Source: a virus (taxonomy: Duplodnaviria > Caudoviricetes). From it: 64,000 nt of DNA. Positions 1,349-27,241 of the stretch are shown here, piece after piece. How positions within the stretch are numbered: position 1 is the stretch's first letter; each line of letters starts with the position of its first letter. The position numbers were made by a program, and so were the translations under genes. Location of the stretch: IMG/VR virus record IMGVR_UViG_3300028048_000038, positions 345,538 to 409,537 of that record, one strand, 5' to 3'. The notes under the pieces are model-generated. The model did no database searches and was not told where the DNA came from. It was given only the letters and a program-made list of their open reading frames with translations.

Positions 1349-4300
1349 TTAAATGTCATCAAATGAAACTCCTTCTGGAGTGATGATGAAGTCGATTGTA
1401 ATGTACTCTAATGCATTGTAAGGTTTTATGTAAATCTTACATGGAAGCTCTCTTCTCTCCCTTGACTCGATTGTATCGTTAACTTCAATTCTGTAATCAG
1501 AGATACCTCTATTGCTTCTGATGCTATCCAAGATTGGGGTTACAGTAGAAATGAATGACTGCTTAACAGTTGAATCATTTGGTTCAAAGATAAGACCAAT
1601 ACAAGAGATTGCAATCAACTTTCTCAATCTAAGAAGCAATCTACGAACTGCGATTCTGTTGAGCTGAGACTCGTTAATCTGTAAGTTCTTCTGGCCCCAA
1701 ATCTTAGGACCGTCTTGAGCAAATGTCTTAATTGGGTTGATTCTACCCTCATAAAGAACGTCCTCATCTCCAAGCTTGGTAATGAAGTGTGCTCTCACAC
1801 AATCAACGTTACCTCTTGAAATACCTGCAGGTGCGAACCAAGGATATGCTGTATTATCAGTCTGTGCAAAGTTTCTAACTGCATCCTTTGTTGCTGGAAG
1901 ATAGATGTACTGATTGTTATCTTGGTCAAGATACTTAACCCAAGGATAATATGTACAACTATAGTTAGAATCAATCTCAGAATCCTCAAGATTACCAACT
2001 GCCTCATCTGGAGTGAACATTTCATCAACGTAGTCGCCAGCACCACTTGGTTTATCAGGAGTTGTAACCACATATATTGAATCAGCTCTCTCTTCCTCAA
2101 TCATTTCGATTGCCTCCTCTACAAGAAGCCTATTGTTTACATAGTCTATACCTGGAGTAGCGAATACGTTAATATCTGTTGCCTCTGGGTTAGAGAACTG
2201 TCTGATACCACTAAGGTAAGCATACCAGTCAGAGGTAATACCATTCTGATTCAATTGTAGAAGGTCTGGATTCTTAATTCTATTGAATGCATAACCCTCA
2301 CCACTACCTTGGTTGATGAAGCCTCTGTACTGAGACATCTTGTAGCCATCAGTGTTGGTTCTCTGGTCTCTGTAATCATCCCATCCATCGAATCCTCCAT
2401 AGAAGAATACTGTGAACTTACGAAGATTTACATACTCATAGATTGAACCGAACATATCGTCTTCAGTACCAATGATTGGTGGTTCAGACAATGTAGAAGT
2501 TCTAGAGTTTGTAGAAACGCAATCGAACTTATATCCACTTTCACCATCAACGGTGTATGCTGAGATGCCTCCATTATCAGCATCAAGTCTTGAATCAAGG
2601 TGGAAACCTCTAGTCATGAATTGTGGATTGTCAATATACGCCTTATTACCCTTGAAGGTAAAGTTGTCAATGTCTACACCAACCCAAGAAGAAAGACCGA
2701 AGTATTGTTTTCTATTCTTAATATCTGGGTCGAAGAATCTATTGTACTTTAATGTTGGGAATGCAACACTGTTTCTATCACCGTCAATTGGGAGACCGTT
2801 ATACTGAGGTATAGGATAACCCAAGAAACCAGCAGGCACTGACATCTTAGCTGCTGTGGTCTCATTTACTTCAACTGTGATGTACTTAGACTTAGATTCA
2901 TATACGCCATCGAATGAGCCAATCTTATACGCAATATAGTTACTATCGCCTGGAATCATTGAGCATCTTCCAAATCTCTCAAGTGGCATAATCTGTTCAT
3001 CAGCATCATCCACTCTGCGAACAATGACATCGAACAAGCCATCATCTGGTCTGATGTTCTCAATTGATACCTTAACCTCATAGTTGGCATTGTTACCATC
3101 TGTAATTGTATGGAATCTGAACAACTTGTTAACTTCAACATGGTCAAAGTCACCCTTCAAGTTAGATACAATCCAAGGTGTAGAAGCATATCTGTATGCT
3201 GACTTGTAGTCATTCATGTCAAGCTCAACATATGCAACATCACTAGCATCCTCATTCATTCTGTAATAAAGACCGTCATAGGTGTTGAGAACCAACTTAG
3301 ATGCTTTCCAATTAGTTGTATTATCGTTGTTCTTTGTTCCACCACTGAGAAGATTACCATAGACATTGGTCAATTCAGCGCCACTAGCAATGATTTCCTC
3401 AAATCCCTCAGAATAATAACCATATTGATAAACCCTCTTACCATCAGCATTTGTATATTGCCTTACAGTGTAAATCTGTCCTGCAATAGCATCTTCACTC
3501 TTTATTTGGGTTTTTCCATTAACAACTTCAGTCAATGGCTTATTGGTCTTGTAGTTATAAGGAACAACCTTAATGCCTAATTCATTTGATTCTTTATCAG
3601 CTAAAAATCTCATACCAACATGCTTTCTTCTAAGCGTTGTCTCAGCCATTCTCAAAAGTCCACCAACTGGCTCATGATGACAATAATCAGCAGTATAATA
3701 TACGTTAAACTGCTTCAAACTATCGTCAATCACATTAACTCTATCCTCAATGATTGCTTGGTCAAGAGCAACATCATAAAGAGACTCAACGAATATTGGA
3801 GCATCACCATCATAAGGTTTTGAGCCAAGAACGTTAAGAATGTACTCCTTATCATATGGATTAAGCGTTACTGGATACTCGAAATAACCCTTTGCAATTG
3901 CCTCTTCTCTTTCCTCAGTAGTTCCACTATATCCTTTGTTGATAATATCCCTTACCTCTGGATTCTCTTCCGTATCACTGTATACACCTTTTACGCCAAC
4001 AAGCTTGAATCTGCCGTGATTGTTCTGAGAAATATAGAAATTGGTTGAAGCGGTATCACCACTCATTCCATAACCACTACATTCATTACCATTGCTGTCC
4101 ATTGGGACATAAGGCTTAATCTGAAGAGCATTCATATTATAACCGTTCTTGTCACAAATATTGGTTGCGTCACCGCTATTTGGTTTCTCACCAACAAAGT
4201 ACTTAAGAACATCATATTTTGATTCCTCACAAACACAATCAGTGGTAGAACCAGTCTCATATGGGTTATAAGTACCTCTTGAACGGATTACAGCAACAGC

Positions 4301-4690
4301 AGTAGTGCCACTTGTTTGTGTGTTACCACTTTCATCTTTATATTCTTTTGAAGCTGTAACAATCCAAGCTGGACCTGCATTATAGCCACTAAGACCGAGA
4401 ACACGAACAACCTTAAGCTGCTCTGACTCGCTCAAGTAAGACTTAGCGATATAAGGCAACTCGTATTTAGGATATTGACTTCCTTTGAATTTCTCCGTAC
4501 TTGTTCCACCAAACACCTCTTGGAACTCACGCCAATTAGAAATATCCATTGGCTGAAAAGCTGGACCCTTCAAGGTCTCACCAACAACACCAAGTGTTGT
4601 GATTCCAAGGCTACGAACAGCGTAGTTGATGTCTATCTCACGAGTATAGATACCCGGTGAAACATGTATTCCTCTTGCATTATCTGCCAT
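1349..4690 (-). CDS. Tail sheath protein (T4 gp18-like)
   Basis: VSPGIYTREID N-terminus; PWFAPAG.SRG, INPI, IWGQK, RIAVRRLL, FEPND and IKP..ALEYI.IDF C-terminal motifs. Confidence 0.95.
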   Translation of the reverse strand: MADNARGIHVSPGIYTREIDINYAVRSLGITTLGVVGETLKGPAFQPMDISNWREFQEVFGGTSTEKFKGSQYPKYELPYIAKSYLSESEQLKVVRVLGLSGYNAGPAWIVTASKEYKDESGNTQTSGTTAVAVIRSRGTYNPYETGSTTDCVCEESKYDVLKYFVGEKPNSGDATNICDKNGYNMNALQIKPYVPMDSNGNECSGYGMSGDTASTNFYISQNNHGRFKLVGVKGVYSDTEENPEVRDIINKGYSGTTEEREEAIAKGYFEYPVTLNPYDKEYILNVLGSKPYDGDAPIFVESLYDVALDQAIIEDRVNVIDDSLKQFNVYYTADYCHHEPVGGLLRMAETTLRRKHVGMRFLADKESNELGIKVVPYNYKTNKPLTEVVNGKTQIKSEDAIAGQIYTVRQYTNADGKRVYQYGYYSEGFEEIIASGAELTNVYGNLLSGGTKNNDNTTNWKASKLVLNTYDGLYYRMNEDASDVAYVELDMNDYKSAYRYASTPWIVSNLKGDFDHVEVNKLFRFHTITDGNNANYEVKVSIENIRPDDGLFDVIVRRVDDADEQIMPLERFGRCSMIPGDSNYIAYKIGSFDGVYESKSKYITVEVNETTAAKMSVPAGFLGYPIPQYNGLPIDGDRNSVAFPTLKYNRFFDPDIKNRKQYFGLSSWVGVDIDNFTFKGNKAYIDNPQFMTRGFHLDSRLDADNGGISAYTVDGESGYKFDCVSTNSRTSTLSEPPIIGTEDDMFGSIYEYVNLRKFTVFFYGGFDGWDDYRDQRTNTDGYKMSQYRGFINQGSGEGYAFNRIKNPDLLQLNQNGITSDWYAYLSGIRQFSNPEATDINVFATPGIDYVNNRLLVEEAIEMIEEERADSIYVVTTPDKPSGAGDYVDEMFTPDEAVGNLEDSEIDSNYSCTYYPWVKYLDQDNNQYIYLPATKDAVRNFAQTDNTAYPWFAPAGISRGNVDCVRAHFITKLGDEDVLYEGRINPIKTFAQDGPKIWGQKNLQINESQLNRIAVRRLLLRLRKLIAISCIGLIFEPNDSTVKQSFISTVTPILDSIRSNRGISDYRIEVNDTIESRERRELPCKIYIKPYNALEYITIDFIITPEGVSFDDI

Positions 4691-7075: not shown

Positions 7076-9094
7076 TTATCTGAATTCATTAATGCTCCAA
7101 TGAACAAGTCCATCGACTCTCACGTGGCCATAGTACCTATTATTCACCATCTTCTTCGCATAACGTGTCATGATACCCTTTACTGGTGCGAAGTTGAATG
7201 GGTTGTACATAGTAGGAGTCAACTGCATTGGCACATATGGTGCATAAATGTAACCTGTGTCAAGAAGTGACTTACCCTTATGACCGATAATCATTGACCA
7301 GTGTGGAGAATATGGGTCACGGTAAACTTGGTAACGTCCACCAAGAGCACCAATCTTCTCAATACCCATGTTGTATTGGTCGCTTTCTGCACTTGCGTCT
7401 GAAACGTGGAAGTACTCAAGGTTATCGAACAATGCAGAAATCTCTGAAGATACTACAATGAAGTTAGCGCCACCACGAAGTGTAGACTTGTGAATCTGTG
7501 CAGAAATCTGGTTAATCTTAGTCATCAACTCTTGATTCCAATCCTTCTGAGTGTAGTTGGTTGAGAATGCAGCCATACGTCTCCAACCATTAACATCCCA
7601 ACGAGCCTGCCAAGGTGCACCCTTACGCAAGTCACGAAGAATCTCACGGTCAATTTCTGCTGCAATCTGCTCTGAAAGGATAGCTGTCAACTCAGCCTCT
7701 GCGTCAATGTTGTGGAATGCAGAAACGTCTTGTGCAAGCTCTGGAGACCATGTTGCACGAAGTTTTCTCTCCTCAACTGATACAGTTACTGAATCAAGCT
7801 TGAAGCTAACCTCACCGATTTCGGTCTCAAGCTCAAGAGAATCATACTGTGCCCAAGCAATCTTGAAGAGAGCCTTCAAAGCATCCTTAGTTGCTTGTGG
7901 GTCATCTGGAGTGATTGCTGCATCAAGAGCTGCTGCGTCAACACCAACATAACCATCGATTGTACCTGCTTGCTGAACTACTGGTTTAGCGAGGTCAAGT
8001 TCGATATACATCTTACCTTCTGCATCGCAAGCTGCACCGTACTCTACGATACCCTTACCATACTTCTGAGTAACAACTCTGAATGGAACAGACTCGAACT
8101 TACGGAAAGCTGCGGTCTGAACGCTCTCTGAGCCAGGAACGGTTGCTGCTGCAATTTCCTTCTGAGTGATAACCTTAAGAGAAGCAAGGAATCCTTCAGT
8201 GTCCATTTCGTTTCCATCAGGACCAGTCAACTTACTTGCGTTGAATGAAGAGAAACCATCAATCTCAAGGATGACGTTACGGATAGTACCATCGAATCCA
8301 CTCTTGAAGTACTGATTAAGGTTGTCAGCACCGAATGGGCGAACACCACTAGGAGCCAAGAATACTGGAATAGCCTCACCAACCTTAATAGTTACCTTAC
8401 CCTTTGAGTTGTCATACAAGAAGTCGTTGTAGAACAAGTCATACAAACTCTTCTGGAAGTACTGAGTTACCTCAGGACCAACTCTACGGATAGCAGTTGG
8501 GTTAAGACCTGCTGCCTCTGCTGCTGCTTTAGCTGCATCGAAGGTTGCATAAGTAGTCTCATCGCTAAGAACTGGAATATACCATGCATCTTGAAGCTCA
8601 TTGATTGTCTCATCTGGGAGATAGTATCTTGGCTCAACACGACCTTCCTTATTACGGTTTACACGGTCATAGCCCATAAGTCCCTTATGACGACCAGTTG
8701 TACCATCGATGATATCACCTGGTTCTGCTTGTGCATCTGCTGGAACTTCCCACTCTCTCTCTGAAGTAACAGGGAGGATGAAGAACAACTTACCAACAGG
8801 AAGGTTCATAGCTTGAACTGATACGATGTCATTAGCAAGAAGCTTGCTGAACACACGTCTAATAATAGGGAAAACAACGGTCTCAAAAGAACCACTGTTA
8901 TCAGAAGCAGTAGCCTCGTAAATCAAGTGCTTTGCCTCATTCTCATACAATGTAGCAACATTCTCCTTGATACCCTCTGGAAGACCCTCAGTGAAACCGA
9001 GATTGTCCCAACGGTTCTGAATGCTCTCACGTATCTGTTTTTGTGCGTTGTACTCAATATTTCCAACTACACCACTTGATAGAAATTCTTTCAT
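7076..9094 (-). CDS. Major capsid protein (T4 gp23-like) with a large central insertion
   Basis: PIIRRV...DIVSVQAM..PVG, RKLRATWSPELAQD..AFH.IDAEAELT.ILSE.IAAEIDREI, YIYAPY.P, GIMTRY. Confidence 0.96.
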   Translation of the reverse strand: MKEFLSSGVVGNIEYNAQKQIRESIQNRWDNLGFTEGLPEGIKENVATLYENEAKHLIYEATASDNSGSFETVVFPIIRRVFSKLLANDIVSVQAMNLPVGKLFFILPVTSEREWEVPADAQAEPGDIIDGTTGRHKGLMGYDRVNRNKEGRVEPRYYLPDETINELQDAWYIPVLSDETTYATFDAAKAAAEAAGLNPTAIRRVGPEVTQYFQKSLYDLFYNDFLYDNSKGKVTIKVGEAIPVFLAPSGVRPFGADNLNQYFKSGFDGTIRNVILEIDGFSSFNASKLTGPDGNEMDTEGFLASLKVITQKEIAAATVPGSESVQTAAFRKFESVPFRVVTQKYGKGIVEYGAACDAEGKMYIELDLAKPVVQQAGTIDGYVGVDAAALDAAITPDDPQATKDALKALFKIAWAQYDSLELETEIGEVSFKLDSVTVSVEERKLRATWSPELAQDVSAFHNIDAEAELTAILSEQIAAEIDREILRDLRKGAPWQARWDVNGWRRMAAFSTNYTQKDWNQELMTKINQISAQIHKSTLRGGANFIVVSSEISALFDNLEYFHVSDASAESDQYNMGIEKIGALGGRYQVYRDPYSPHWSMIIGHKGKSLLDTGYIYAPYVPMQLTPTMYNPFNFAPVKGIMTRYAKKMVNNRYYGHVRVDGLVHWSINEFR

Positions 9095-10813: not shown

Positions 10814-11518
10814 GTGATGAAAAAAGCTGAATTAGAGATAATAAAGGAAGGTAAGACTGGACATGGTATCCTTATCGAGAATGATGGATACATATCATTA
10901 GACTTTGGCAACAATAAACAGTTAAAGGAAGATATTAATAATGGTGGGTGGAATGTACCAAATCCATTTATTGTGGATTGTATTCTGCAAAAATTTGACA
11001 CTAAAAACGCAAATGGTAGAATATACCCAGAACATGTCCTAAAAAGGGAAGTTGAGAAATACCAAAAAATGGTAGCTGAAAAGATGGCTTTAGGGGAACT
11101 TAATCATCCTGCTGAAAGTACAATTGACCTTGGAAGAATTTCCCATAACATTGTTGAAATGCATTGGGAAGGAAAAACTTTGGTTGGTAAGATAGAATTA
11201 AACGTTACTGAAGGCTTTAGAAAATATGGGATAGTATCGACTTGTGGAGACCATGCAGCACAATTGCTTCTAATGGGATTCCGTATAGGGGTATCTTCAA
11301 GGGGTGTTGGTTCGGTTGAACAACGCCTAGGACAATACTATGTTGGTGATGATTTTGAGTTAATAAGTGTCGATATTGTGTCAAGTCCTTCAACTCCTGG
11401 AGCTTATATTGGAAGTCCAGAATATCTACAACAATTCGTTGAAAATAACGAAACAAATAATTCAAAACCTTCTTTAAACGAAAAGATTTTAAAGATTAAA
11501 GAAGTACTTTCCTCGTAA
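10814..11518 (+). CDS. Prohead protease (T4 gp21-like)
   Basis: KNANGRIYP, ALGELNHP, ISHNI, IGVSSRGVGS, DIVSSPSTPGA. Confidence 0.93.
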   Translation: MMKKAELEIIKEGKTGHGILIENDGYISLDFGNNKQLKEDINNGGWNVPNPFIVDCILQKFDTKNANGRIYPEHVLKREVEKYQKMVAEKMALGELNHPAESTIDLGRISHNIVEMHWEGKTLVGKIELNVTEGFRKYGIVSTCGDHAAQLLLMGFRIGVSSRGVGSVEQRLGQYYVGDDFELISVDIVSSPSTPGAYIGSPEYLQQFVENNETNNSKPSLNEKILKIKEVLSS

Positions 11519-16547: not shown

Positions 16548-18593
16548 TTATTTGTCATCAACAAACTTACCAAGTTCATCAATCATCTTATCAAATTCTT
16601 CATTAATCAACAATGAATCCTCATCATAAACATCTGCACGCTTGTACTCAGTTTCTCTATGCTTCTCATTGCGTTCCTTCAAAGTTGAAAGATACTTATT
16701 GAACATTTCATCAAGCTTATTGTTCTTCTGCTCATTTATCAGTGGCTTGTTTGAATATCTAGACTCCATTGGCGCATTTGGGTCACTTCCCATATCGGCT
16801 GTTGGCATTGAACCCTCTTGGGCTGGTGCCGTTCCACTACCATCATCCATTGGTGCTCCCATATCTCCACCCATATCAGGTGCGTCTCCCATTGGAGGAG
16901 GTGGTGCTCCCATTCCACCGCCCATTCCTCCAGAGCCACCATCCATGCCACTTTGGCCGCCTTGCATATCATCCATGTATTCTGCTCCTGGTTCACCATA
17001 GATTCTATCAACGGTATCGAAGATACCAGTCTTCTTGATAATCTGTGTGGTTTTCTCAAGTTCAGCGGCAATACCCTTTTCAAGACGTATCTCTTCAAGG
17101 TTCTCCTTAATCTCCTTTTCAGACCATTTCATAATCTGCTTAAGAGCACGAGTTTGTGACATAACTGGAAGACCATTACCTGGGTCTGATACTGCGTCTC
17201 TAACAGCATCAATCTTCTTCTGCATGTTCTCAATCTCCAATCCTTCAGCTTGTGTTGATGGATTATTCATCGTCAATGAGAAATTGGTCAACTCATCATT
17301 GAAACCTAACAAGAACAAGTGGATTGAAGCCACTTTTGTAAGTTCCATCAAGAATGCTTGCTGTATTCTGTTTACTGTTCTAGTGAAACGAATATCCATA
17401 AGTGCAAGATTCTTACCGTCACCAACACCTTCCTCGAAATTCAAGAATGACTTAGGTATTCTAAGTGAAGTCAACACCTTATTCTGCACAAACTTGATAT
17501 CATCAAGAGCTGTCATGTTCTGACCAGCTGAAAGCGTATCAATTGGAGTTGGTGCATTCTCATCACGTACTGGAATAAATATATCATTGTCAATTCCAAG
17601 AATATTCTTACGAAGGTCAACTTGACCAGTTACTGGGTCAATAATCGGTGTTCTCTTAAACTCATTGGCAATTCTCTCTACATATGCTTCAACATCAGCA
17701 TCATCAATAGCTCCAACGAAAATCTTATACACACGTCTTTCAACTGAACGCTCAAGACGATAGATAAGCATCATATCTTCCATCAATGAAAGCATCCTCC
17801 AATGCCTACGTGCGCCATTAAGGTAACTCACACCATAAGGTAAATACAATGAGTTTGTGAGCAATCTAAAATGAGCAATCTGCCAATCTCTGAATGGTAC
17901 TTGTGAATTATTATCATCCAACCAAATAAACTGAGTTGATAGGTCTGCATCATCCTTTGTTACACCGTTAACAGCGATTGATGAGCCAGCACCATAAGGA
18001 TTTTGAACCCCATTTTCAATTCTCTCCATATTGAATACTGGAAGCTGTTTCCAACCCTTAACACCATTTTTATGGTCAATATCCAATAACATAAATTGAT
18101 TACCATACTTACACATAGCACGGATAATCATCTGACCAGTTAATTGGATGTTAAGTCTATTCACGAACAAATCCTCAAGAATGCTCTTGATTCTATCTGA
18201 CTTGGAATAAACATTAACAACCATTCCCTTGTCATTAACAATCGTACTTTCCTCAGAAACAATATCAAGTGCTGCACTAATCTCTGGAAATGCATCCATC
18301 AAATCACCATCACGATACATTAACTTGACATTGTTCAAACCACTATATGCGGTTACAGCTAGGTTAACATTAGTCTTAACCCATCTATCCTTCAAGTACT
18401 TATCTTGCTGAAGCTCTAGTTTCTTCTGTAAATAGTCATCCCTATCTGTTGTCCTATATATTACATTCTTACCATCACTAGGAGTCAAATCATATGAATT
18501 AATATGTGGCTCTGCTATTGATGTAGATGAAGAAGTCCAACGTCCAGTTATGGCTTTATCTAGGGCTTGAAAAACTGTATTCTTTTTTGCCAT
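16548..18593 (-). CDS. Portal protein (T4 gp20-like)
   Basis: PEISAALDIVSEE, YGVSYL..ARR.WR.L.LMEDMMLIYRL.R..ERRVYKI, DIFIPVR, L.IPKSFL. Confidence 0.95.
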   Translation of the reverse strand: MAKKNTVFQALDKAITGRWTSSSTSIAEPHINSYDLTPSDGKNVIYRTTDRDDYLQKKLELQQDKYLKDRWVKTNVNLAVTAYSGLNNVKLMYRDGDLMDAFPEISAALDIVSEESTIVNDKGMVVNVYSKSDRIKSILEDLFVNRLNIQLTGQMIIRAMCKYGNQFMLLDIDHKNGVKGWKQLPVFNMERIENGVQNPYGAGSSIAVNGVTKDDADLSTQFIWLDDNNSQVPFRDWQIAHFRLLTNSLYLPYGVSYLNGARRHWRMLSLMEDMMLIYRLERSVERRVYKIFVGAIDDADVEAYVERIANEFKRTPIIDPVTGQVDLRKNILGIDNDIFIPVRDENAPTPIDTLSAGQNMTALDDIKFVQNKVLTSLRIPKSFLNFEEGVGDGKNLALMDIRFTRTVNRIQQAFLMELTKVASIHLFLLGFNDELTNFSLTMNNPSTQAEGLEIENMQKKIDAVRDAVSDPGNGLPVMSQTRALKQIMKWSEKEIKENLEEIRLEKGIAAELEKTTQIIKKTGIFDTVDRIYGEPGAEYMDDMQGGQSGMDGGSGGMGGGMGAPPPPMGDAPDMGGDMGAPMDDGSGTAPAQEGSMPTADMGSDPNAPMESRYSNKPLINEQKNNKLDEMFNKYLSTLKERNEKHRETEYKRADVYDEDSLLINEEFDKMIDELGKFVDDK

Positions 18594-18641: not shown

Positions 18642-20519
18642 TTACTTAACTCCTCCAAATAGCCACATACAACTTCCACCTATATTACTATATTTCTCAA
18701 TACGTTTCTTTGAACTGTAGAAAGGTAAACCAGTCTTAGGTGCAATAGTCTCTCCACTCTTCATCTTTGGTTTATTCATACTGATTGCACGATTCATCAT
18801 ATACGCATTAAGAATAGCCTTATCCTTATTGGCTGTATTTTGTATCCTATTAACAGTGTACTGCATAACGAACAATCCCATAGCCAATGCTGTAAGAGTA
18901 TCGTCATGAGCACCGTCTTGGTGGTCAATTCTAGCTGTCTCACCCTTGAATATCCAAGTCTCAAGTTCGTTGATTACCCTAGCTGAACGAATCTTGAACT
19001 CATTGTTACGGACAAGACCTGCGAAGTTTGCAAGTACTGGATAACGGTTTCCTTGGAAGTGGAAACCTGGAAGTTTATCCGTATATCCATCATAGTTCTT
19101 TGTTGACCTCTGAACCATATATGTCTTTTGGTTTGAATCCTCATAATACATGTTTTTATAACCCATGTTTATAAGTGTTAATATGGCAGCATCTCCTTGA
19201 CCACCAGTACAGTCAACGACAATGAATGCATCATTATACATTGTTGCATATTGATAACATAATGCTCCAATATCATCACCCAATTTCTTTCCAACATATT
19301 CTCCAACTTGCTCGATAATCGGTAGTCCATTCTCGTCCCTACCATCCATATCAATAATCTCAATGGCTGTTCTATCGGCAGATACGCCTCTTGATGGGTC
19401 ACATGCAAGAATATAACGGTGTCCCTCAATAGGACGTTTCCAAAACCAAGTCTCTTCAACTAATGGGTCATGAAAATCATCAAGTGGCTCTCTTGTGTTA
19501 AGCTTCTCTTGCATTTCAATGAACTCTGGAGCAACAACGTTGTCGGCAGAACCCATGAACGATACATCAAGCTCTTGGGCAATCTTCATTGAGTCATTGT
19601 TGAACTGCTTGCACATTTCATCATACCAAGGCGCTGTAGGTTTCCAACCATTGTGTTCAAGTCTAGCCCATCTTTCCTCATCATACTTCACTCCTCCCTC
19701 ACTGTCGATTATTGGGTCTTGGTCAAACTCCCATTCACCAGTATCTTCATTTTTCTTCTTCCACACAAGATACTTGTTGAATCTTGGGTCTTGATACCAA
19801 CGGAACTGTACTGCCACGAAGTTATTCTCATGGCTTAATGCTTGCCTATATGTGTTATAGTAAAGCTCGTCTCTACCGTTAGGGGTAGATACCATAACAG
19901 TCTTAGAATTAGGGTTAGATGCCATAGTTGCAGCAGCAGTGGTAAACGCAGCCACACCTTCCTCAATAAACGCTGCCTCGTCAAGAATCAAGACGGATAC
20001 AGCAGAGATACCACGAGAAGCATTAGGACCAGATGCACGTGCAATGATTCTACAACCATTGAACAACTTCAGCTCACCTTTTGCATCCTTTAAAAAAATT
20101 GATTTTAGATTTTTTTCTGAATTAGGGTCAACTGAGAAATATTCATTACCCCAATACCATCTAGGAACTTGCTCAAGGAAATCTCTTACCTTTATGATAA
20201 TTTCTTGCGCTTGTTCAAGCTTATTGGCAATACACAAAACAGTCTCAGGTGCCTCTGCTGATGCAAATGCACACTGGGCTGCTGCCCAAGCACTTGATAG
20301 TGTTGTAATACCACACTGTCTTGGCTTAATTGCAACAACGTTTCTGTTTTCCGCAAGAGCCTTGAGGAACGCTCTCTGACGTGGAAAACAGTGGAATTGT
20401 GTTTTCTTACCCTTAGTTGCATTAAAGGTAGAGAAATACTTTTCTATAAATGTAATTCTTGATTTGTCGGCATAGCATTGAGCATAATCGCTTGCCATTT
20501 GTTGTCTATCGTAAATCAT
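18642..20519 (-). CDS. Terminase large subunit (T4 gp17-like)
   Basis: KPRQCGITT (Walker A), LILDEAAF (Walker B), STPNG, RNase-H domain CDPSRG...D...HDD. Confidence 0.93.
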   Translation of the reverse strand: MIYDRQQMASDYAQCYADKSRITFIEKYFSTFNATKGKKTQFHCFPRQRAFLKALAENRNVVAIKPRQCGITTLSSAWAAAQCAFASAEAPETVLCIANKLEQAQEIIIKVRDFLEQVPRWYWGNEYFSVDPNSEKNLKSIFLKDAKGELKLFNGCRIIARASGPNASRGISAVSVLILDEAAFIEEGVAAFTTAAATMASNPNSKTVMVSTPNGRDELYYNTYRQALSHENNFVAVQFRWYQDPRFNKYLVWKKKNEDTGEWEFDQDPIIDSEGGVKYDEERWARLEHNGWKPTAPWYDEMCKQFNNDSMKIAQELDVSFMGSADNVVAPEFIEMQEKLNTREPLDDFHDPLVEETWFWKRPIEGHRYILACDPSRGVSADRTAIEIIDMDGRDENGLPIIEQVGEYVGKKLGDDIGALCYQYATMYNDAFIVVDCTGGQGDAAILTLINMGYKNMYYEDSNQKTYMVQRSTKNYDGYTDKLPGFHFQGNRYPVLANFAGLVRNNEFKIRSARVINELETWIFKGETARIDHQDGAHDDTLTALAMGLFVMQYTVNRIQNTANKDKAILNAYMMNRAISMNKPKMKSGETIAPKTGLPFYSSKKRIEKYSNIGGSCMWLFGGVK

Positions 20520-22764: not shown

Positions 22765-22832
22765 ATTACAAATTTTTATATAAATATCTGTACAAAACAA
22801 AAAAGGGACACTCTAAAGTATCCCTTTTTATA

Positions 22833-23279
22833 TTATTTAAAGTATGGAGATTGGAATGGTGTCATTGGTTGATTCCTATATTCTTTTGGCATCTTCTTTT
22901 CGGGTCTCTTTGTACCCTCATGGTCATCCAAAACATCATTTATGACCTCATCAATTACACCCTTGTAGTTGAAGGTTGATTCCATTGGCATTCCACCGTC
23001 TTGAGGCATGGCATCTGAATCATCAGCAATGCTCTTCGCATACTTTACGACTGCTGCCTTATCCTCTGCTGACATGTTATTAACAATGCTGTCTAGTTCA
23101 TTATCTTCCATGTTTCCACCTTCCATTGGAGGTTGTTGGTCATCCATTGGAGGTTCGCCTCCACCCATAGGGTCATTCATCCCCATATCATCAGCACCCA
23201 TTGGTGGCATTGGAGCATTATCTAAATCACCCATGCCATCCACACTACCACCTAGAGGGTTGCTGTTTGGTATTTCCAA
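22833..23279 (-). CDS. Pro/Gly/Met-rich ORF, probably the -1 frameshift extension of the upstream protein
   Basis: First available start is TTG; the frame is open back through the TTTAAAAAAAAAC slippery run. Confidence 0.55.
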   Translation of the reverse strand: MEIPNSNPLGGSVDGMGDLDNAPMPPMGADDMGMNDPMGGGEPPMDDQQPPMEGGNMEDNELDSIVNNMSAEDKAAVVKYAKSIADDSDAMPQDGGMPMESTFNYKGVIDEVINDVLDDHEGTKRPEKKMPKEYRNQPMTPFQSPYFK

Positions 23280-23311
23280 TTTTGTTGGTCTCTCCTCAAA
23301 AGCAATTTCGT

Positions 23312-24994
23312 TTAGTTTATGTTTTTTTTTAAACGATTTAAAGCCTCTGCAATTGCGTTGTCAATTGCTTGTGGGTCGATTTCGAATGGAGCACCATCAC
23401 CAATCTTCTCACCGTAAGGAGTGTCATTCTTAACTGAATCGTCATTCATATCATAGTAACCTGGGAATTCCTTCATATCCTTTGGAGGTAAATCCATAAC
23501 TACTTTCTGATATGCTGGGTGTTTACCAAAATCATCCAACTTGTTCATATTACCACTTGGAACACGACCTGCATCCTTGAATGGGGTCATACCTTCCTCG
23601 TTTACTTTCTGCTTGCCCATAGCTTTTCTATATGCAGCAGTTTCATAAATCTGAACACCGTTGTTTCTTTGTTTGCTTTCCATTGGCATTTCGTCATCGA
23701 TTGGTTCTTCACCACCGAAGTCATCACCTTCACCCTCGTCACCGAAGATATCATCGTCTCCATAAGCGCTAGCGTCTACACTTGGTTCACTAATACCCAA
23801 CTTGTCAGCAATCTGTGAAAGGAGCTCTTCCATTGCACTAAGACGTGATTCAACATCATCCTCATATACATCTTCTCCTTCGTCACCAATTGGCTCTTCA
23901 CCGCCAAGGTCATCACCAAGTTCGTCATCAATTGGTTCGTCTTCAGCGTCTAAATCGTCACCGAGTTCATCACCCATTGGCTCACCTTCACCCTCTTCAG
24001 GAGCTGGAGCACCATCAACATCCTCGCCACCGAAGTCATCGAAAGCCTCGTCAATCTGTTTGCCCTTCTCACCATCGAAAGGTTTGTTGTTATCATCAGA
24101 TGGTCCTTCACCAACGCCTACTTCTGGTTTGTTCTGGTCATCGGTATCATGCATAGAAGTACCATGATTCTCAACAACACCATTCTTCATTTCACCAGTA
24201 TTAGTTACCTTCTTGTCACCATCGTCAATATTACGTGCCTCTGGACCGTCAAAAGGTGCGCTATCACCAATCTCAGTACCATGAGACTTATCCATGTAGT
24301 CATCGTTACCACGATTCCAACCAAGAACCTCTTCCTCATTTACAGTCTCGCACTGACATGGGTTTTTGCCACATTTAGGACAAGTCTTATCCTCAGTCAT
24401 GCTAGTTGGAATCTCTGCGTTTGTATATCCAGCGTTTGCAGAAGCCGCATCACCGCATTCTTCTACACTGCTAGAGATATTGTCCTTCTGTGAATTCTTG
24501 ATGTCCTTATCACAGATGCCATTTGCACACTCTTTCTTACCCTCTGCAATCTTCATTGCATTTTCCATGATTTGACGTGAACGATTGATTTCGTTTCTCA
24601 TCTTATCAGTTGCCTCAACTACAACAGTCTCTTTCTTGTCCAAATCCCAAGAACTGATGTTATAGTCTTGTTTGTTTGCAGCCTCTTTAAGAGACATCAT
24701 CTTCATATCGAAGTTCTTCTGTGCGTCAGCAAAAGAATCATATTGATAATCCTTTCTGTTTCTGAAACCACCAATGTAGTTGAAATCTTCTTTTACAAGA
24801 TTCTGTTTGTTAGAAGCAGACTTGATGTAATATTTAGTACCCTCACGTACAATACCATATACATTACCATCAGCACCAAGCTTCTGGTTCTCTACTGAAC
24901 TGTATGGAGCTTTCTTACTCTCAGTTTGAAGACCATATCCCATCAAAGCCTTCATTCTAGCAATCTGCTCATTTGTATTCATTTTATTATCCAT
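23312..24994 (-). CDS. Acidic scaffold-like/internal head protein
   Basis: EQIARMKALMGY..TES N-terminus; D/E/G-rich; many [IV]xE motifs. Confidence 0.6.
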   Translation of the reverse strand: MDNKMNTNEQIARMKALMGYGLQTESKKAPYSSVENQKLGADGNVYGIVREGTKYYIKSASNKQNLVKEDFNYIGGFRNRKDYQYDSFADAQKNFDMKMMSLKEAANKQDYNISSWDLDKKETVVVEATDKMRNEINRSRQIMENAMKIAEGKKECANGICDKDIKNSQKDNISSSVEECGDAASANAGYTNAEIPTSMTEDKTCPKCGKNPCQCETVNEEEVLGWNRGNDDYMDKSHGTEIGDSAPFDGPEARNIDDGDKKVTNTGEMKNGVVENHGTSMHDTDDQNKPEVGVGEGPSDDNNKPFDGEKGKQIDEAFDDFGGEDVDGAPAPEEGEGEPMGDELGDDLDAEDEPIDDELGDDLGGEEPIGDEGEDVYEDDVESRLSAMEELLSQIADKLGISEPSVDASAYGDDDIFGDEGEGDDFGGEEPIDDEMPMESKQRNNGVQIYETAAYRKAMGKQKVNEEGMTPFKDAGRVPSGNMNKLDDFGKHPAYQKVVMDLPPKDMKEFPGYYDMNDDSVKNDTPYGEKIGDGAPFEIDPQAIDNAIAEALNRLKKNIN

Positions 24995-25063: not shown

Positions 25064-27241
25064 TTATTGGTATTGATACTGAGTTTGTTGTGGCATTGTA
25101 CTAAAATTATCATCTACCGTACCCATTTGATTATCTTTTCCTCTTGTATCGAAATTGACTTGTTTAATATTTGGTGTGAACTTATCCAATGCCCTTATAT
25201 AGAGAACACTCTTAGGTTTCATTTCAATGCTATCCCATTGTATGCAAATGCAGTAGTTATATCCAATCAACTGTGATAACACCTTATCATAATAACATTT
25301 ATACAACTTACCATTTTCCTTTGATTGCATTAACTTACCATAATTAGAAACAAAGTCCTTGAGTGCCTTTCTTTCAGCATCCCAACGTTTCTTATATGGA
25401 TTATGTTCACTGTTTCCATCACCAACCCATTCCTCATTTAATAAGGTAATAGCATTAGAATACTTTCTGATTGATTCTGCAACATTTCCTACCAATTTAA
25501 TAGTTTCACCATCAAAATATCTTACAACATCATTTATCACTCTTCTTGGGTTAGCTCCATCCCATTCAGCATACTCGTATGAATTATCTCCATCACCAAT
25601 CTCTACAGTTACATTACCCTTACTATATTGAATTAACCTTAACATTGGGTTAACTTGTTCCCTAGTAGGTTTCTTGAAGAGATTTATAGAACTCCAAGTG
25701 TTTGAACAATGGATTCTTATTGCACCCATTCTAATGAAGTCTGCCATATTGATGTTTAGACCGCTTTTAGTAGTCATATCGGCATCCCAATTAAGGTTTC
25801 CAATGTCTCTGTGGTCAACACCCCTTCTACCTCTAAGATGAGAGGTATCAGTATTTCCAGTTACCATATGTCTTCCACTGAAGTCAAGCATACTACCATC
25901 TGGAAGTATATAACCACATTCCCTTATATCATTGGTGACACCGAATCTCTCTTTAGCCAACGCAAACACATCAACATTGTTATTACTCTCTACTGATTCA
26001 GTTATTGAATTGTTTCTATCATAAACAGTTGAGAACAATTTGAACAACTTATCAAGATATTGTGTCCTACGTAGAATCTTATAGACGATATTTCCAGCTC
26101 CACTCTCGCCATTGCTCTCAAGGCTTGACTTTCTCATTGCCTTAACCTTCTTCCAAAGATACTGAGCATCGTCACCGATTGTCTCAATCTTATGTGAATC
26201 GTCTGTAGCATTAAGAGCATTATACATGTCATCAATGATTGTCATGATTTCTGCTGCCTTATCCTTGATTGAGAACTTGTCAAGACCAATTGGTTTTATG
26301 CTGCCCATATCTGGTTTCTTAACCCAATCATTTTCCTCAAGGTCGTATATACCACCACTCTGAGGCATTTCACCTAGATTCTGAACATATAATTCAACTG
26401 GGAATCCCAATATCGTCAAGTCGCTATGTTCGTTGTTCCATTCATTCTTCTTGGCATCAAGATAATCACGAACAAATTCTGTCTTCTCATCAATCTCATC
26501 GAAATCAACAATAAGGTGAAGGTCGATGTCAGAATACTTAGACCAATTGAAATTGCAGATTGAGCCAGTTAAGATAATTCCACTTGGTTTAACCCAAGTT
26601 AAATTAACAAATTCCCAAAAATCGTCTGCAATATCCAATAATCTTAGTCTAACTCTAGAATCCAAAGTATTATCATCTACCCATATTGGCGCTAATTCAC
26701 TCTTTTTCTTAAAGGATGAAAGGTCAATATCAGAAGAATCTACCTCAAAATCAAGATTTTCAATTATGTTCTTGATTTGGCTTTCATTGACAATAACACT
26801 TTTATTATTTTTCTTTGATTCATATTTATCCAAATTAACTATGACTGGTTTGTTGTTTTTATCAATCTTCAACCATTTGTAGTACTTATATGCCATACTT
26901 CTTTTTTCAAAATAACGTGGCATAATGTTAATATCAATAAGGTTGATTACTGCCCAGTTGCTCCATTCATTTGGTCTCAGTTTCTTTGCTCTATATATGA
27001 ATTCTTGTGGTATTTTAGAATAATTTACACTTGTTTCTTCTACTGTGTGGCAATAATTACCTCCAATTGGTGGATTATTGCTTTCTTGTCCAAGTTCAAA
27101 TTCATCAACCTCTGCTGAAACTTCTTCAACATTATGGGAAACACCATTATGGCTGACATCATCCATGCCAACCATAATTTCATTTATTCTATCCTTTAAA
27201 GTTAATAATCTATTCTCTCCGAATGTAATAGTTTTTCCCAT
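25064..27241 (-). CDS. Multidomain protein with a Pol-beta-type nucleotidyltransferase domain and a GYILPDG domain
   Basis: ILTGSICNFNWSKYSDIDLHL...VELYVQ (GS...DxD...E); ECGYILPDGSMLDF...DHR. Confidence 0.7.
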   Translation of the reverse strand: MGKTITFGENRLLTLKDRINEIMVGMDDVSHNGVSHNVEEVSAEVDEFELGQESNNPPIGGNYCHTVEETSVNYSKIPQEFIYRAKKLRPNEWSNWAVINLIDINIMPRYFEKRSMAYKYYKWLKIDKNNKPVIVNLDKYESKKNNKSVIVNESQIKNIIENLDFEVDSSDIDLSSFKKKSELAPIWVDDNTLDSRVRLRLLDIADDFWEFVNLTWVKPSGIILTGSICNFNWSKYSDIDLHLIVDFDEIDEKTEFVRDYLDAKKNEWNNEHSDLTILGFPVELYVQNLGEMPQSGGIYDLEENDWVKKPDMGSIKPIGLDKFSIKDKAAEIMTIIDDMYNALNATDDSHKIETIGDDAQYLWKKVKAMRKSSLESNGESGAGNIVYKILRRTQYLDKLFKLFSTVYDRNNSITESVESNNNVDVFALAKERFGVTNDIRECGYILPDGSMLDFSGRHMVTGNTDTSHLRGRRGVDHRDIGNLNWDADMTTKSGLNINMADFIRMGAIRIHCSNTWSSINLFKKPTREQVNPMLRLIQYSKGNVTVEIGDGDNSYEYAEWDGANPRRVINDVVRYFDGETIKLVGNVAESIRKYSNAITLLNEEWVGDGNSEHNPYKKRWDAERKALKDFVSNYGKLMQSKENGKLYKCYYDKVLSQLIGYNYCICIQWDSIEMKPKSVLYIRALDKFTPNIKQVNFDTRGKDNQMGTVDDNFSTMPQQTQYQYQ

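Follow-up and report, generated by a model that had tools for sequence, protein, structure and literature searches.

A conserved A-run as a predicted recoding site in a head-cluster gene of large gut and rumen phages

The locus and its reading frames

The DNA considered here, called the window, is a stretch of 64,000 nucleotides (positions 345,538 to 409,537 of the IMG/VR virus record IMGVR_UViG_3300028048_000038). It forms the terminal 64 kb of this 409,537-bp record, which has inverted terminal repeats and comes from an uncultured gut/rumen phage of about 410 kb. Our subject is a gene of its minus strand: a 560-aa open reading frame (ORF; 23312-24994, ATG start, pI 4.3) that contains, close to its stop, a run of nine A's (A9, 23322-23330). 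From the comparison of homologous sequences we conclude that this run is a real and conserved programmed recoding site, by which one gene would give a 560-aa and a 720-aa form. Coordinates are those of the window unless the full record is named.

Read directly on the minus strand, the 3' end of the 560-aa ORF is CGT TTA AAA AAA AAC ATA AAC TAA. The A9 run begins at codon position 3 (ttA AAA AAA AAc) and is bordered by TTT (23333-23331) and by a C (23321); its context TTTAAAAAAAAAC (23321-23333, minus) contains, as read from the sequence, the in-phase heptamers T_TTA_AAA, A_AAA_AAA and A_AAA_AAC. The zero-frame stop TAA (23312-23314, minus) is the third codon past the run and lies within CTA AAC (Leu-Asn) of the shifted frame. 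With codon starts at 2 versus 1 modulo 3, the downstream frame is in -1 to that of the 560-aa ORF: translated from 23345 it reads ...KKKHKLNEIAFEERPTKLEIPNSNPL..., open without a stop down to 22833. Counted from the run, the extension in this frame (22833-23324, minus) comprises 163 codons plus a stop at 22833-22835, and the downstream ORF as listed (22833-23279, minus) has 148 aa, with a TTG at 23279 as its only listed start.

Under standard decoding, translation would end three codons past A9 and produce the 560-aa form. If a fraction of the messages gained one A, or if ribosomes slipped back one base in the run, translation would go on in the -1 frame for 163 codons, giving a predicted long form of 720 aa (557 + 163; 22833-24994, minus) with the junction ...RLKKK-HKLNE.... 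A preliminary description, made from the letters of the DNA, had reported the ending of the 560-aa ORF, the overlapping heptamers, the open -1 frame, the TTG-only start and the 720-aa fusion, and all these elements proved correct on re-reading. The junction peptide K-H-K-L-N-E of the -1 frame (23307-23324, minus) matches the family-wide motif KKK-x-[LIV]-[NTS]-E and is a candidate gp21-type protease site. A terminator-like hairpin of 13 pairs followed by a T-run (22800-22829, minus) stands directly after the stop of the extension, and no comparable hairpin follows the stop of the 560-aa ORF; both frames are therefore placed on one predicted transcript.

Homologous junctions and selection

Homologous loci were collected from IMG/VR (41), from a metagenome collection (77) and by look-ups of remote representatives (6). 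After removal of duplicates, judged on the 300 nt around the site, 100 distinct analysable junctions remained, one further locus (L098, see below) being counted apart; the assemblies come from JGI, ENA, NCBI and Logan and represent many metagenomes. An A-run occupies the homologous place in all 100 junctions, which answers the question of conservation that the preliminary description had raised for the slippery run. Its length is mostly nine (51 junctions) or ten (38), so that 89 of the 100 are A9 or A10 and, with a single A11, 90 lie between A9 and A11; the others are A6 (2), A7 (6) and A8 (2). The extension, of about 140-250 aa, is out of frame with the upstream ORF in 99 of the 100 junctions: 75 require a -1 change and 24 a +1 change (equivalent to -2), all of these 24 having A10. 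The out-of-frame arrangement claimed for this locus thus holds in the family, while its -1 direction is not uniform. In all the out-of-frame relatives the zero frame ends 1-7 codons past the run, with TAA as the stop in 41 of the 42 junctions inspected and TGA in the remaining one (L042). The A7 lineage (compare L094) matches the peptide KIHTITEKYVIKVP. A frame change at the A-run giving a short and a C-terminally extended form, which the preliminary description had proposed for one sequence, is strongly backed by the comparison of 100 homologous junctions.

The only in-frame member, L043 (a 29-kb Logan contig, SRR21898928), has an A11 at 2896-2906, read ATT AAA AAA AAA AAG, which fuses both parts in one 654-aa ORF; its other two frames stop within a few codons. 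This could be the mirror image of the usual design, slippage giving there the short form, or the in-frame state could instead come from a single base that differs in the assembly or in part of the population. A FastTree tree of 90 relatives, with the residues adjoining the run excluded and many forks weakly supported, shows at least 28 changes in the combined state of run, phase and frame, at least 22 in run length and at least 9 in the required direction; in-frame reading arises only once.

The same picture emerges from protein collections. A word-index search found 1078 relatives of the 560-aa protein, and a profile search 1022 clusters at 50% identity. The 120 closest protein clusters (422-598 aa) all end right after KK(K/N); of the 150 best remote clusters, 108 have a tail of this type, and these include the nine longest (681-795 aa). 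Used as a query against longer proteins, the extension revealed no fused homologue, which is weak evidence, and a hidden Markov model of the extension gave no fusion when run on the 150 remote representatives; P0267, the single true fusion, was recognised from its C-terminal motif. Megablast and tblastn searches of 50,697 public phage records found no relative of either part.

The run itself is also conserved as nucleotides. Of the Lys codons of this phage only 48% are AAA, and an A9 spells only 3 of the 79 KKK tripeptides of its long ORFs; as the run is nevertheless unbroken in the 100 junctions, the comparison argues that it is maintained against synonymous change by selection on the nucleotides. 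The genome has 38 runs of nine or more A's on either strand, nearly all of them intergenic, and in only one of them, that studied here, does a long ORF lead into a long frame that has no start. The arrangement goes beyond chance. The full record has three more long A-runs in contact with long frames, possibly slippage-prone too: an A9 at 266909-266917 (minus) lies in frame within one of about 490 aa, an A10 at 260027-260036 (minus) within one of about 215 aa, and a second A9, at 269824-269832 (plus), directly before an ATGA stop/start overlap of frames of 479 aa and 345 aa.

Selection on the protein acts on both sides of the run. The upstream ORF and the extension are both under purifying selection, and in pairwise comparison with this locus the extension gives a dN/dS of 0.1-0.4 for close relatives; the median of 77 pairs is 0.29. 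Conceptual fusions align across the junction, with KKK-x-[LIV]-[NTS]-E followed by (EER)PTKLEIP or HVLKVP; in the alignment of the extension Glu6 is nearly invariant and Leu16 invariant. Because [LIV]-x-E is retained also in relatives whose zero-frame stop sits farther downstream, the embedded TAA does not by itself account for the motif. Of the 92 complete extensions, 88 lack any ATG, GTG or TTG from the run to the first conserved block, and the TTG at 23279 is the codon of the invariant Leu16, spelled CTA, TTA or CTT in other members. These comparisons indicate that the extension is translated, that its translation begins at the A-run and that selection on the protein operates from the run onward.

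Slippage by the polymerase or by the ribosome

Bacterial RNA polymerase slips efficiently and without helpers on nine A or T residues, its RNA-DNA hybrid being 9-10 bp long (Atkins et al. 2016, PMC5009743); the resulting transcripts may carry up to six extra bases, Thermus dnaX being an example (PMC5009743). On a homopolymer as long as the hybrid, the nascent RNA could re-align and produce messages with n-1, n+1 and n+2 A's, and such mixed run lengths would also explain the relatives whose extension lies in the +1 frame. The peak of the run lengths at A9/A10 corresponds to the length at which the bacterial enzyme slips efficiently unaided (PMC5009743), and exceeds by two or three A's what a ribosomal heptamer needs. 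Moreover, the A10 members requiring +1 cannot be served by canonical -1 frameshifting; the loss of one A or the gain of two can serve them. Pseudoknot-free folding of the family members, upstream and downstream of the run, disclosed no RNA structure that is conserved or stands out by its stability: for the 60-70 nt downstream the energies are -5 to -20 kcal/mol and the mean z values per run-length group -1.2 to +0.1. Long A-runs are otherwise avoided in the coding DNA of the genome. The canonical ribosomal -1 frameshift put forward in the preliminary description therefore misfits the family on three counts (24 of the 100 junctions requiring +1/-2, 89 at A9 or A10, no conserved stimulatory structure in this folding). 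Transcriptional slippage, which had been mentioned there as a check only, appears to be the better fit. We infer that the slip occurs at transcription and, at the A9 of this locus, is probably made by RNA polymerase; the short and the long forms would presumably be required in a set ratio. The enzyme is likely that of the host, by analogy with T4.

Several observations nevertheless weigh against polymerase slippage, and most of them speak for the possible, although in our view rather unlikely, alternative that the same two products arise from a ribosome slipping by -1 on T_TTA_AAA, A_AAA_AAA or A_AAA_AAC. An A_AAA_AAN heptamer in the proper phase is present in all 75 members requiring -1, this locus included. 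In the ten with A6 (2), A7 (6) or A8 (2) there is little beyond one heptamer, always correctly phased, which fits a ribosomal shift better than a slipping polymerase. A tRNA-Lys(UUU) is among the genes of the phage; sliding of ribosomes on repeated AAA codons is documented (Koutmou et al. 2015, PMC4363877); and E. coli dnaX uses A_AAA_AAG for a ribosomal shift (PMC5009743). For the relatives requiring +1, the ribosome would have to slide by -2 or +1 on A10. Also unfavourable to the slippage model is L098 (QWCL01000012.1, 142.7 kb). Around its positions 3140-3170 a deletion has removed 30 nt that its close relative L113 has, and with them both the A10 and the [LIV]-x-E block; the extension remains in +1 with no obvious slip site, and the contig may represent a defective phage or a faulty assembly. 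A phage-encoded RNA polymerase was sought with five Pfam families and no match exceeded the threshold, in a search that is uninformative, its T7-type control having been silent, and that would miss divergent enzymes. What speaks against the ribosome is that 89 of the 100 junctions keep two or three A's beyond the heptamer, that 24 require +1/-2, and that the pseudoknot-free folding shows no downstream hairpin at the typical spacing (5-9 nt), the energies there being ordinary. Shine-Dalgarno-type stimulators would be unlikely if the host belonged to the Bacteroidota, which is a guess.

The remaining explanations dispense with a programmed slip. Homopolymers of 9-11 bases are mutable, so that a population might mix A9 genomes making only the short form with A10 genomes making only the long one; the at least 22 changes of run length on the tree and the in-frame A11 of L043 go in this direction. 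Such a phase variation at the DNA level is very improbable all the same, since a meaningful switch would leave many consensus sequences in frame, whereas 99 of the 100 are out of frame, and since L043 itself, although in frame, still has its A11 and stops soon in both other frames. Could the extension be a separate gene, started at the TTG 23279, at a non-canonical codon or by re-initiation after the TAA, the A-run being incidental? The TTG does exist, gene callers predict a downstream gene in distant relatives, and the extension has Met codons from about its codon 25 onward. Against this, 88 of 92 relatives lack any ATG, GTG or TTG ahead of the first conserved block, the TTG merely encodes the invariant Leu16, and KKK-x-[LIV]-[NTS]-E is conserved from the run onward, across the zero-frame stop. 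Independent genes would besides be expected in frame one third of the time, and a separate downstream frame is never in frame 0. We give this explanation hardly any weight, and a downstream gene with its own ATG and no slippery site, which the preliminary description had named as a contrary case, is not the arrangement of the homologues. As to a sequencing or assembly error (a true A10 and a single 720-aa ORF), homopolymers are indeed error-prone in some sequencing chemistries. The out-of-frame design recurs however in 99 distinct junctions across JGI, ENA, NCBI and Logan, where changes of run length and of frame compensate one another in a way that sequencing errors are not expected to produce; no close relative shows the A10 single ORF, which had likewise been named as a contrary case. 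The comparative data in effect refute an assembly error, and a decaying pseudogene conflicts with the purifying selection on both parts, so that an explanation by error or decay is scarcely credible.

If slippage by the polymerase is the probable mechanism at A9, it need not be that of every member. A ribosomal -1 shift is plausible for the A6 and A7 lineages, and a mixed mechanism across the family is a real possibility by analogy with dnaX, whose tau and gamma forms arise in Thermus thermophilus by slippage on a 9-base run and in E. coli by a ribosomal -1 shift at A_AAA_AAG (PMC5009743). Here as in dnaX, the homologues of one family seem to be divided between long homopolymers and bare A_AAA_AAN heptamers, and a one-base change can swap the product of standard decoding, L043 mirroring the other 99. 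In the best-known cases of dnaX, on the other hand, it is the shorter product that results from the slip, and in 99 of the 100 phage junctions it would be the longer one; dnaX is also a replication gene, the present one a gene of a phage head cluster, known here from sequence comparison. Closer in design is tssM1 of Citrobacter rodentium, whose A11 run gives two length variants in a required ratio (Gueguen et al. 2014, PMC4256274). In tssM1, as in tssM3 of Yersinia pseudotuberculosis, a poly-A run stands just before a premature stop and extra A's in the messenger restore the frame, one gene thus giving a short and a C-terminally extended form; the requirement for a ratio was shown for tssM (PMC4256274). 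The differences are that tssM has an A11, belongs to a bacterial secretion system and was established by experiment (PMC4256274), whereas the phage gene has A9 or A10 (A6-A11 family-wide) and a variable required frame, and is known from comparative evidence alone.

Among phage systems, the 10A/10B pair of T7 gene 10 and the G/GT pair of lambda are ribosomal shifts at defined heptamers and in a fixed direction. They share with the design predicted here a place in the morphogenesis cluster, a major short and a minor extended product, and a frame change near the 3' end. They differ in that the gene described here is neither a major capsid nor a tail chaperone gene, and that its signal is a homopolymer of 9-10 bases with a variable target frame. 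A tail assembly chaperone pair of the G/GT type was considered and rejected: the gene is not between the tail tube and tape-measure genes, its neighbours being a 725-aa protein and the terminase side of the cluster.

The recoding trick is therefore known, and it is its occurrence in this gene family for which we found no description. The literature yielded no report of frameshifting or slippage for this phage group, and the Jug-phage paper (PMC12880540) makes no mention of such recoding; the same paper reports RpoC-like genes in gut phages of related size. In the present genome the only RNA-polymerase-like signal is a weak, sub-threshold match to Rpb1_2 (E 0.015, 13.5 bits) in a 165-aa frame (135858-136136, minus, full record). 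In well over 1000 database entries, gene callers split the locus into a 560-aa gene and a small gene that is start-less or wrongly started, so that a large group of jumbo phages from gut and rumen is annotated without the predicted 720-aa product. With runs of 6-11, both target frames and one in-frame member, the roughly 100 natural versions of this site also form a set suited to asking when the polymerase and when the ribosome slips, and how the ratio of short to long product is tuned.

The protein and its head-cluster setting

No match to a named family or fold stands out for the protein. In the AlphaFold model of the 560-aa form (pLDDT 61) only residues 30-150 are confident; the prediction comprises a small alpha/beta domain (about 30-110) and a long helix, the remainder being mostly disordered and acidic, with a conserved C-terminal region that ends ...AIAEALNRLKKNIN. 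The extension is acidic too (pI 4.3), with a low-complexity part rich in PPM, G and D and a conserved C-terminal P-F-x-S-P tail; it is modelled (pLDDT 55) as three short helices, otherwise disordered. PHROGs and Pfam hold no family for either the 560-aa protein or the extension, and a sequence-profile search of the PDB returned only a chance match (E 0.59). The ESM Atlas gave only unnamed viral clusters, with only viral taxa recorded for the nearest ones. Foldseek comparison of the 560-aa model with viral models found only an uncharacterised homologue, and a wide fold search with VIA no standout match (best Z 5.7). From these models the fold is best called unassigned rather than shown to be new. 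The idea that the extension is a paralogue of the upstream protein was rejected, as only low-complexity and short-motif matches link the two.

The window also encodes a tail sheath (1349-4690), a gp23-type major capsid protein (7076-9094), a Peptidase_S77 corresponding to a gp21-type prohead protease (10814-11518), a gp20-type portal (16548-18593) and TerL, the large terminase (18642-20519). The T4-like head module assumed in the preliminary description is thus borne out by the terminase, portal, capsid and S77 protease found in the cluster. Upstream of the recoded gene lies a gene for a 725-aa protein (25064-27241, minus; phrog_36119); downstream come those for proteins of 168 aa and 558 aa, then the terminase. 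The counterpart of the 725-aa neighbour in the distant relative L043 (L043:1-1444) has a weak match to NTP_transf_2, and the order is kept there: nucleotidyltransferase-bearing protein, recoded gene, small genes, terminase. The family retains this position, beside such a large protein and close to the terminase. In L045 an ART-PolyVal-domain protein of more than 1500 aa stands in place of the nucleotidyltransferase-bearing neighbour.

The preliminary description had seen in the product a scaffold or internal head protein with a KLNE motif. The motif is kept family-wide, in the form [LIV]-x-E, and a head-internal role is suggested by the T4-like neighbourhood and the acidic composition; the searches gave no family, fold or structure match to support it. 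With the T4-type prohead core and internal proteins the likeness is the head cluster with its S77 protease; Pfam, PHROGs, the PDB and the fold searches gave no match. A K-V-N-E at residues 463-466 (23597-23608, minus) repeats the junction motif, and its Glu466 is invariant in 75 diverse relatives in spite of poorly conserved, disordered surroundings, so that by sequence conservation this is a candidate second processing site. Per Glu residue, [LIV]xE is no commoner in the recoded gene than in neighbouring or unrelated genes. Taken together, the cluster, the composition, the S77 enzyme and a [LIV]-x-E kept at the junction and again at Glu466 suggest a head-associated protein, core- or cargo-like and perhaps cleaved by the gp21-type protease at the [LIV]-x-E of the junction.

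One may tentatively join these threads, although we regard the combination as a doubtful one: the family would be a natural recoding series in which both products are always kept, and the extension would be a cleavable prohead cargo or core element. The series would run from the bare heptamer of A6 and A7, through A9, needing one more A, and A10, needing one less or two more, to the in-frame A11, where slippage would give the short form, with dozens of flips between these states. The extension would be delivered to the prohead at a fixed sub-stoichiometric dose and freed at [LIV]-x-E by the gp21-type protease.

The translation equipment of the phage comprises 46 tRNA genes (aragorn). A tRNA-Lys(UUU) and two tRNA-Lys(CUU) are grouped at 149112-149648 of the full record, and one tRNA, at 136577-136653 of the full record, has the anticodon CUA, which reads TAG.

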